From NCBI GenBank assembly GCA_028718185.1, contig JAQUMH010000002.1, positions 4,088 through 68,087 on the forward strand: 64,000 bases of DNA, read 5' to 3'. Shown here in pieces: positions 42,780 through 42,909 of this stretch; the first letter of the stretch is position 1; each line of letters begins with the position of its first letter. The notes under the pieces are model-generated. The model did not search any database. It was not told the DNA's origin and saw nothing but the letters and a program-made list of their open reading frames with translations. The position numbers were made by a program, and so were the translations under genes. Source of the DNA: Elusimicrobiota bacterium (GTDB lineage Bacteria > Elusimicrobiota > UBA8919).

Positions 42780-42909
42780 CCTAATCGAAGAGCGAAGAAG
42801 TTGTTGAGCAGAACTTCACGGAGTTCCGCTTAAAACATTCAGCGGAACGAGTGAGAGTGCCCCGACGTAACGTCGGGGACAACGGTTCTGTGAGACAAGC
42901 TCCCGAACG
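42780..42909. repeat. Conserved ~125-nt structured element, copy R2
   Basis: 42799-42861 is identical to 12816-12878. The same outer helix and GTTCCGCT/AGCGGAAC hairpin are present. The second hairpin is replaced by an unrelated perfect hairpin, CCCCGACGtaaCGTCGGGG. Confidence 0.75.

Follow-up and report, generated by a model that had tools for sequence, protein, structure and literature searches.

How can two nearly identical copies of a repeat carry unrelated hairpins at the same position, and what kind of element would tolerate this? The question arises from 64,000 nucleotides of an Elusimicrobiota bacterium (contig JAQUMH010000002.1). We refer to this whole stretch as the window; it is AT-rich (about 34% GC), and all 36 of its long open reading frames (ORFs) are on the - strand. 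The two copies, R1 (12807-12920, from GAGCGA to GAGCG) and R2 (42790-42909, from a 5' GAGCGA to a 3' GAACG, or starting at 42781 if its 5' TAAT tail is counted), are both on the + strand and belong to an element that we call type A. We will argue that the exchanged hairpin is an arm of a larger structure whose folding is under selection, and that type A may well be, at about even confidence, a new family of non-coding, non-autonomous mobile structured repeats in AT-rich Elusimicrobia, selected to fold on one strand.

An earlier note on this DNA had placed R2 at 42780-42909, between two pilT paralogs, and a repeat finder, a covariance model, and the gene table all agree with this. The paralogs are T2SSE/PilT genes on the - strand (42911-43975 and 41586-42680), and R2 is in the 230-base spacer between them. 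The stop codon of the upstream pilT (TAG at 42911-42913, read on the - strand) comes after R2's terminal GAACG. The covariance model matches R2 at 42778-42912 with 104 bits (E ~1e-26) and scores R1 at 131.7 bits, while the repeat finder aligned 12797-12878 to 42780-42861 at 95% identity. The copies have in common an exact core of 43 bases (12832-12874 in R1 and 42815-42857 in R2), and none of 100 shuffles gave such a match. Outside of the position where the hairpins differ, which we call the slot, 104 bases can be aligned, and these differ by just 5 substitutions and a single indel. The flanks of the slot had been described as identical on both sides. This is true of the upstream side, where the match is exact over the 57 adjacent bases (42805-42861) and only 2 of the 72 bases counted from GAGCGA differ (at 42796 and 42798), but the downstream flank of 32-33 bases is similar rather than identical, with 3 substitutions and 1 indel.

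Within the slot, the two copies cannot be aligned to each other. Between a common TGCC and a common GGACA, R1 has AGCACAAGCT and R2 has CCGACGTAACGTCGG. The inner stem is CCAGC-acaa-GCTGG in R1 (12877-12890, within a slot at 12874-12894 of the + strand) and CCCCGACG-taa-CGTCGGGG in R2. Both sequences form perfect stem-loops in every fold, whether RNA or DNA parameters are used. In R2, the slot corresponds to an arm that we call P4 (42858-42881 of the + strand), with outer pairs UG/CA, an inner stem CCCCGACG/CGUCGGGG at 42860-42878, a UAA loop, and a bulged A. The alignment and the folds together confirm that the sequence was swapped and that a hairpin was kept at the same position.

To see what occupies the slot in other copies, we turned to a collection of 21 distinct type-A copies from at least six Elusimicrobia genomes or metagenomes. 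All 21 have a hairpin in the slot, with 13 distinct sequences, and in no copy is the slot empty or filled by sequence that does not form a hairpin. Each of these hairpins is built in the same way: its outer part has 2-4 pairs, an A bulges out on the 3' side, and the inner stem, which is perfect over 4-8 pairs, is capped by a loop of 3-5 bases. In a model-based alignment of the 21 copies, which is the source of all of our covariation figures, 7 of 7 modelled pairs in P4 change on both sides, and 97% of the cells pair. At the level of the family, this supports the earlier suggestion of compensatory evolution of a required helix. P4 is the most variable helix and the freely variable arm of the element, and its shape alone is kept. 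The weakest explanation, that the repeat is decaying and maintains no helix, so that the slots differ by indel noise or by a chance palindrome, could appeal to the contrast being seen in just two copies in the window and to the many short GC-rich palindromes in these spacers, but this census, with its conserved bulged A and compensated pairs, already refutes it.

As for the particular difference between R1 and R2, wholesale replacement seems more likely than stepwise compensation, because 10 and 15 unalignable bases, respectively, lie inside copies that are otherwise ~94% identical. The sequence of the P4 inner stem would be unconstrained, so that an outright replacement could occur, perhaps through template switching at a palindrome or through insertion of a nested palindrome; a stem that is free in sequence and replaceable would account for a total difference in the slot despite the similarity elsewhere. 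Neither slot sequence was found elsewhere in the window or in the collected loci. The comparison with BIME-like mosaics that had been offered for the slot does describe its surroundings, where modules combine and nest, but cassette exchange at the slot itself is not demonstrated. We also considered whether the slot might be a guide sequence and rejected this, as the window has no complements of the slot arms elsewhere. The element has no coding potential, because the two slots differ in length by 5 bases. Variable arms occur in many structured nucleic acids, and of all our results the swap in the slot is the one that surprises least.

The rest of the element is far less free. Type A is ~115 bases long and GC-rich, and all 21 copies fold into the same Y-shaped three-way junction. 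A rod of helices P0, P1, and P2, closed by the two ends of the element, leads to the junction, from which the arms P3 and P4 emerge. P0 is formed by the GC of each terminal GAGCGA, P1 by GGGAGTTGTT pairing with AACAAGCTCCC, and P2 by GCAGAAC pairing with GTTCTGC. The helices of the rod are set apart by symmetric GA/GA internal loops (CGAG opposite CGAG, or tandem G·A). In R2, the 5' strands of P1 (AGAAGTTGTT) and P2 (GCAGAAC), with GA between them, are at 42796-42814 of the + strand and pair with 42885-42904; the corresponding 3' strands of P2 (GTTCTGT) and P1 (GACAAGCTCCC), followed by the terminal GAACG, occupy 42885-42909. P3 comprises TTCAC/GTGAG, a GGA/GA internal loop, and the hairpin GTTCCGC-loop-GCGGAAC, with a loop that ends in CATTCA (in R2, at 42815-42855 of the + strand, this loop has 12 bases). 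This arm is invariant in the copies over 14 + 18 bases, and its 7 inner pairs never vary. We infer that P3 is the part that something recognises.

Several measures support this structure. Of the 693 pair cells in the alignment, 98% are standard pairs, as compared to 36-53% once the 3' partners have been shifted by 1-3 columns. Compensatory changes are found in 16 of the 33 pairs (in helix 1, 9 of 14), and the observed covariation score was not reached in any of 500 shuffles. An analysis with MAFFT and RNAalifold agrees with the model-based alignment, and on the + strand R2 and R1 have folding z-scores of -4.6 and -6.4, respectively. The fold is under selection. Two embellishments of it were rejected. 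A pseudoknot in which CAUUCA of the P3 loop would pair with the 5' strand (GAAUG, in the copies from RIFOXYD2) or with the 3' tail (UGAAU) lacks conservation from one subfamily to another. The motif CUGACGAAAC in the RIFOXYD2 copies is suggestive of a hammerhead or other ribozyme core, but the topology is wrong (P1 and P2 are joined via an internal loop, not a junction), the other subfamily does not conserve the motif, and Rfam finds nothing.

A sister element, type B, has the termini GAGCGAGGGAG...CTCCCGAGCGA and the Y-shaped fold in common with type A, and its interior is different and equally conserved. One copy is at 45910-46018 of the window's + strand (it scores 29.9 bits against the type-A model and 138 against the type-B model), which brings the type-A and type-B copies in the window to three. 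Other type-B copies are in L028, L031, L038, L039, L014, and L051. (Identifiers that begin with L denote 8-kb loci that carry copies or matching sites.)

Which strand folds can be read from the mismatches. On the aligned strand, which is the + strand of the window, there are 46 G·U cells as against 7 A·C cells, and the + strand fold is better by 1-13 kcal/mol in all six comparisons for type A and all four for type B. Read on the - strand, the tandem G·A motifs, which are conserved, turn into U·C/C·U mismatches. Copies of either genomic orientation have the same G·U pairs, so the asymmetry is a property of the element; for the same reason, we rejected local mutation bias as the cause of the excess of G·U. 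The + strand of the element is also 60% purine, with a GC skew of +0.14, versus about -0.13 for the + strand of the window overall. The folded strand is fixed: it is the + strand of the window, antisense to the neighbouring genes.

This orientation is a general rule. In spacers between two co-directional protein genes, the folding strand is antisense in 22 of 23 type-A and type-B copies (binomial 6e-6). The 3' end of these antisense copies ranges from a 14-base overlap with the upstream stop codon to 27 bases away from it, and the 5' end is just ahead of the downstream ribosome-binding site. Such tight placement needs no special targeting, because the ancestral spacers have 7-16 bases and the ribosome-binding site must survive. 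Before tRNAs, the element is instead sense and ends 3-6 bases before position +1 of the tRNA. The tRNA-adjacent copies are beside tRNA-Thr in L003 (where the element is between two tRNAs), tRNA-Gln in L012, a remnant of tRNA-Ala in L024, and, for type B, tRNA-Pro in L028 and L039. Because L028 mixes orientations, with type A(+), type B(-), and type B(+) within 1.2 kb, the direction of replication alone cannot set the orientation. Replication-strand bias was rejected on this ground and also because the folded strand would sit on the leading-strand template, which is reportedly the opposite of the pattern for IS608. The orientation rule implies that selection acts on a single-stranded form. The + strand RNA is probably not neutral inside an mRNA, and upstream of a tRNA it could be removed by RNase P. 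If this RNA is active, then sense copies inside mRNAs would be removed by selection, and sense copies just upstream of tRNAs would be tolerated, as RNase P would trim them off.

We also compared orthologous spacers for the presence or absence of the element, as had been proposed. All three copies in the window are missing from the matching sites in related genomes, where the covariance model found no element, so they are insertions. The spacer between the pilT genes has 16 bases in L044, 7 in L046, 7 in L048/L049, and 62 in L050, and the stop codon at this junction is at the same codon position in the relatives. The galT-glgE spacer has 216 bases in the window and 14, 125, and 92 bases, without type A, in L051-L053. 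Similarly, the spacer between the genes for a peptidyl-prolyl isomerase (PPIase) and a DUF2851 protein has 254 bases in the window and 87-88 bases, without type B, in L044 and L050. The converse case is L051, which has a type-B copy where the spacer in the window has 32 bases. Sites turn over while the family persists, as RIFOXYD2_FULL_34_15 and UBA4817 carry the family at other sites. The flanking genes are housekeeping genes: atpE/atpF (L004), panD, dcd, cvpA, an SIS-domain (gmhA-like) gene, cytidylyltransferases, ThiD2, pilT, and glgE.

These insertions matter for genome annotation, as they enlarge the spacers of core operons and create spurious small ORFs. In L051, a 46-residue "gene" in the public record (1909-2049) is wholly within a type-B element and is probably spurious. 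In the window, the ribosome-binding site of the second pilT has been displaced: at 42681-42700, there is no Shine-Dalgarno-like sequence within 15 bases of the ATG of the downstream pilT, and in the relatives the GGAGG overlaps the upstream stop codon.

Given one genome per species, a degenerate pattern for the core found 6 matches in RIFOXYD2_FULL_34_15, 5 in UBA4817, and 1 each in two others. True matches were confined to metagenome-assembled genomes of Elusimicrobia; the other matches were chance hits in GC-rich coding DNA. A scan of metagenomes yielded six further distinct type-A copies. The pattern had no match in viral contigs, and we rejected a phage origin. The PilT and GalT proteins of the window are 79-87% identical to those of the element-bearing genomes, and the identity of the element between genomes is 0.72-0.85, with P3 invariant, as compared to 0.72-0.79 for the DNA of pilT and galT. 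Because the element is about as similar as these conserved genes are, we favor long vertical persistence under constraint over recent transfer.

None of this corresponds to a catalogued RNA. At the gathering thresholds of Rfam 15, nothing in the whole window matched. With E up to 10, R2 had no matches, and R1 and the type-B copy had two noise matches, at 10-14 bits against thresholds of 60-80. There is no tRNA or tmRNA in the window. In the literature, 13-base strings from the core appear in no searchable paper, and none of these papers links Elusimicrobia to RNA motifs, repeats, or non-coding elements.

The type-A copies are set among other hairpin modules. R1 is enclosed by a type-B-like shell (12776-12947 of the + strand), with AAGCAAGAAATTTTCG at 12776-12791 and AAAATTTGCTTGCGAACG at 12930-12947, and the nested fold forms. 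Whole type-A copies are also found inside type-B shells in L010 and L031, and in L003 and L027, the outer stems of type B enclose a CCGAAGGGAGTCCCTTYAGGGG hairpin instead. The hairpin followed by a run of T after R1, which we considered as a terminator, is the 3' half of its shell and overlaps the galT stop codon. Another module had been noted upstream of R2, and indeed CCTGCCTACCGGCAGGTAGG at 42701-42720 is an independent, dispersed palindrome. This 20-base CAGG palindrome (CCTGCCTACCGTCAGGCAGG) recurs in spacers at 14016-14035, 60876-60895, and ~19494-19517. The copy at 14016 was inserted where relatives have spacers of 9-16 bases, and it is identical to one that, in another genome, is inserted in the type-A copy of L024 (1959-1978), between P4 and P2. 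GC-rich hairpin modules of some kind are found in nearly all of the window's long spacers, so a mosaic of modules is a fair description of these spacers.

What, then, is type A? The best reading by analogy is that it loosely resembles REPIN, MITE, or BOX elements, and it would spread as a mobile repeat through a single-stranded intermediate. Like REP, BIME, and REPIN sequences (PMC3184786), it is a GC-rich extragenic palindrome that folds as a single strand, is found between the genes of operons and in mosaics, and persists for long periods with changes that preserve the hairpins. Its strand-specific fold would also fit mobilisation by an enzyme that acts on single-stranded DNA. In Proteobacteria, the REP, BIME, and REPIN repeats are mobilised by RAYT (Y1) transposases, whose genes are usually flanked by the repeats. 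Type A is not itself a REP. It has no GTAG/GTGG head (the consensus begins GAGCGAGGGAG); it is a ~115-base three-way junction with an invariant internal arm, rather than a 20-40-base hairpin or a simple doublet; it apparently has tens of copies rather than hundreds; and it is strictly antisense in operons. The resemblance to MITEs lies in the conserved or compensated terminal inverted arms of P1, GGGAG(N)TTGTT and AACAAGCTCCC, although the outermost GAGCGA motifs are direct and not inverted. As with MITE, Correia, NEMIS, ERIC, BOX, and RUP elements, it is non-coding, in the range of 100-200 bases, polymorphic for insertion, and in transcribed spacers. In contrast to MITEs, type A has no detected target-site duplication, its interior is more conserved and more structured than its termini, and its two strands fold with clear asymmetry (G·U versus A·C). 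Pneumococcal BOX elements are modular with a variable middle module, which is comparable to the slot and the nested shells of type A.

A number of observations weigh against a mobile repeat. First, comparing filled and empty sites, we found no target-site duplication, although a 2-base duplication of TA would escape notice in such AT-rich DNA. The terminal GAGCGA motifs are not a duplication of this kind: within a copy, the 5' and 3' variants do not match each other but pair (for instance, GAACGA with GAGTGA, a compensatory change of GC to AU), and together they form a covarying helix of 2 pairs, with G·A pairs on its flanks. Second, the annotated gene tables of the window and of the 8-kb loci contain no transposase, but no genome-wide search for a partner protein was made. 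Third, the exact-core scan found just 5-6 type-A copies per genome, a low number that fits a family of RNA genes equally well. An arm that is both invariant and internal is more often a trait of functional RNAs than of transposons, as the latter are usually recognised at their ends. Furthermore, RNA and single-stranded DNA would both fold, so folding cannot tell them apart; the orientation rule is explained only by inference; and the sequences in the model-fitted alignment are those from which we derived the structure, with pair cells that are not independent events.

The main rival, which is possible but which we judge to be clearly less probable, is that the copies are genes for small RNAs, or leader RNAs of tRNA precursors, expressed from the + strand. 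The functional core would be P3 and its CAUUCA loop, which would bind a protein or serve as a pairing seed; P4 would be a free structural arm; and duplication, rather than selfish spread as repeats, would have multiplied the genes and moved them. The strong covariation, the strand-specific G·U pairs, the low copy number, and the invariance of a 32-base arm across genera all suit such genes, as does an antisense site between operon genes, which would give independent expression. Like multicopy structured small RNAs and tRNA-linked spacer RNAs, type A has several copies per genome, covarying helices, and a conserved loop on a conserved hairpin. Also, because the element ends so close to +1 and, in L003, sits between two tRNAs, the elements in L003, L012, and L028/L039 must be co-transcribed with tRNAs, and RNase P could define their 3' ends. 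In ~12 of 21 copies, a semi-conserved TAAT box that could be a -10 element stands 3-4 bases ahead of GAGCGA, but nothing upstream of the box is conserved, so no -35 element travels with the copies. On the + strand of the three window copies, we found neither a sigma-70-type promoter, a type that Elusimicrobia may not use, nor an intrinsic terminator. Nor are the sites conserved between genera: the window copies were inserted into core-operon spacers of 7-90 bases, as was the copy between atpE and atpF in L004. Nesting with other hairpin modules is typical of repeats, and there is no matching Rfam 15 family.

A related idea, which we consider to be rather unlikely, is that type A is a previously unknown active structured RNA, Y-shaped, rich in G·A, ~115 bases long, and made from the + strand, in which P3 would bind a protein or react and P4 would distinguish the copies. 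Its source would be either tRNA precursors, from which RNase P would cut it out, or antisense transcription inside operons. The 22-to-1 excess of antisense copies would arise because the RNA is processed or acts in cis in mRNA, and DNA copies could spread via a mechanism that is tied to the RNA or to its single-stranded DNA equivalent.

It is improbable that the element acts instead on the - strand, within the operon mRNA, as REP and BIME sequences do, by protecting the upstream cistron from 3' exonucleases or by setting relative expression. The placement is apt, since in 22 of the 23 copies the - version directly follows the stop codon of the upstream gene and precedes the ribosome-binding site of the next one, and the - strand does still fold, at -41 to -58 kcal/mol. 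But selection acts on the + strand: the - strand fold is always the weaker one, the 46 G·U cells of the + strand become A·C mismatches in the mRNA, the tandem G·A motifs become U·C/C·U, and the tRNA-adjacent copies have the opposite orientation.

Finally, integron attC-like sites for recombination of single-stranded DNA are a most improbable explanation. The length is similar (attC sites have 57-141 bases), and attC sites likewise are defined by structure rather than by sequence, fold antisense to the preceding gene, abut the stop codon, and have extrahelical bases and a variable arm. However, the R''/R' core sites are absent or misordered. The RYYYAAC...GTTRRRY boxes are out of order, with GTTGAGC at the 5' side of the + strand and a partner, GCGAAAC, that breaks the consensus, and the order is likewise reversed on the - strand. 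The flanks are core housekeeping genes rather than cassettes, and some copies adjoin tRNAs. There are no arrays and no integrase in the gene tables for the pilT and galT loci, although most ORFs of the element-bearing 8-kb loci are unannotated. Also, the part corresponding to the "terminal structure" of attC holds the most conserved part of the element. From the sequences, attC-like sites seem to be largely refuted.

Elusimicrobia are known almost entirely from metagenomes. Whether type A is a mobile repeat or something else, the family has useful traits: well-supported covariation, an arm that is invariant across genera whose conserved genes are ~75% identical in DNA, and a clean orientation rule. 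Existing metatranscriptomes and complete genomes could tell a selfish repeat from a new functional RNA.

We also noticed several other features in these sequences. A hairpin module, CCCGCCAACGGTTCAGTGGCGGG, is found at 3609-3631 and 44160-44184 and in the flanks of L012, L021, and L024, often beside a TCCGCCA...TGGCGGA hairpin. A GTCATTGCGA.../GAGATTGCTTCGC module at 3590-3700, 60860-60960, and 61270-61300, with a GCGAAGC mini-hairpin motif, looks like a further repeat family. In L003, two tandem 58-base repeats (77-210), each with a GGCAATTTGCGAAGCAAAATTGCC hairpin, are between tRNA-Phe and the type-A element. In L024, a hairpin-rich stretch of ~155 bases (2008-2166) is between a 12-base copy of the 5' end of tRNA-Ala (GGGGGTGTAGCT) and the intact tRNA, an arrangement suggestive of an insertion that duplicated 12 bases.

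Upstream of the DUF2851 gene in the window, about nine tandem octamers similar to AATCAGCG (45770-45872) may be an operator array; the relatives have ATCTGCGTAATCTGCG repeats there. A giant ORF of 4192 residues (20398-32976) contains three tandem 738-base repeats at 21488-23737. And direct and inverted repeats of ATCACGAAT (52293-52387) are upstream of three tandem paralogs of 726, 654, and 753 residues (52388-58787).

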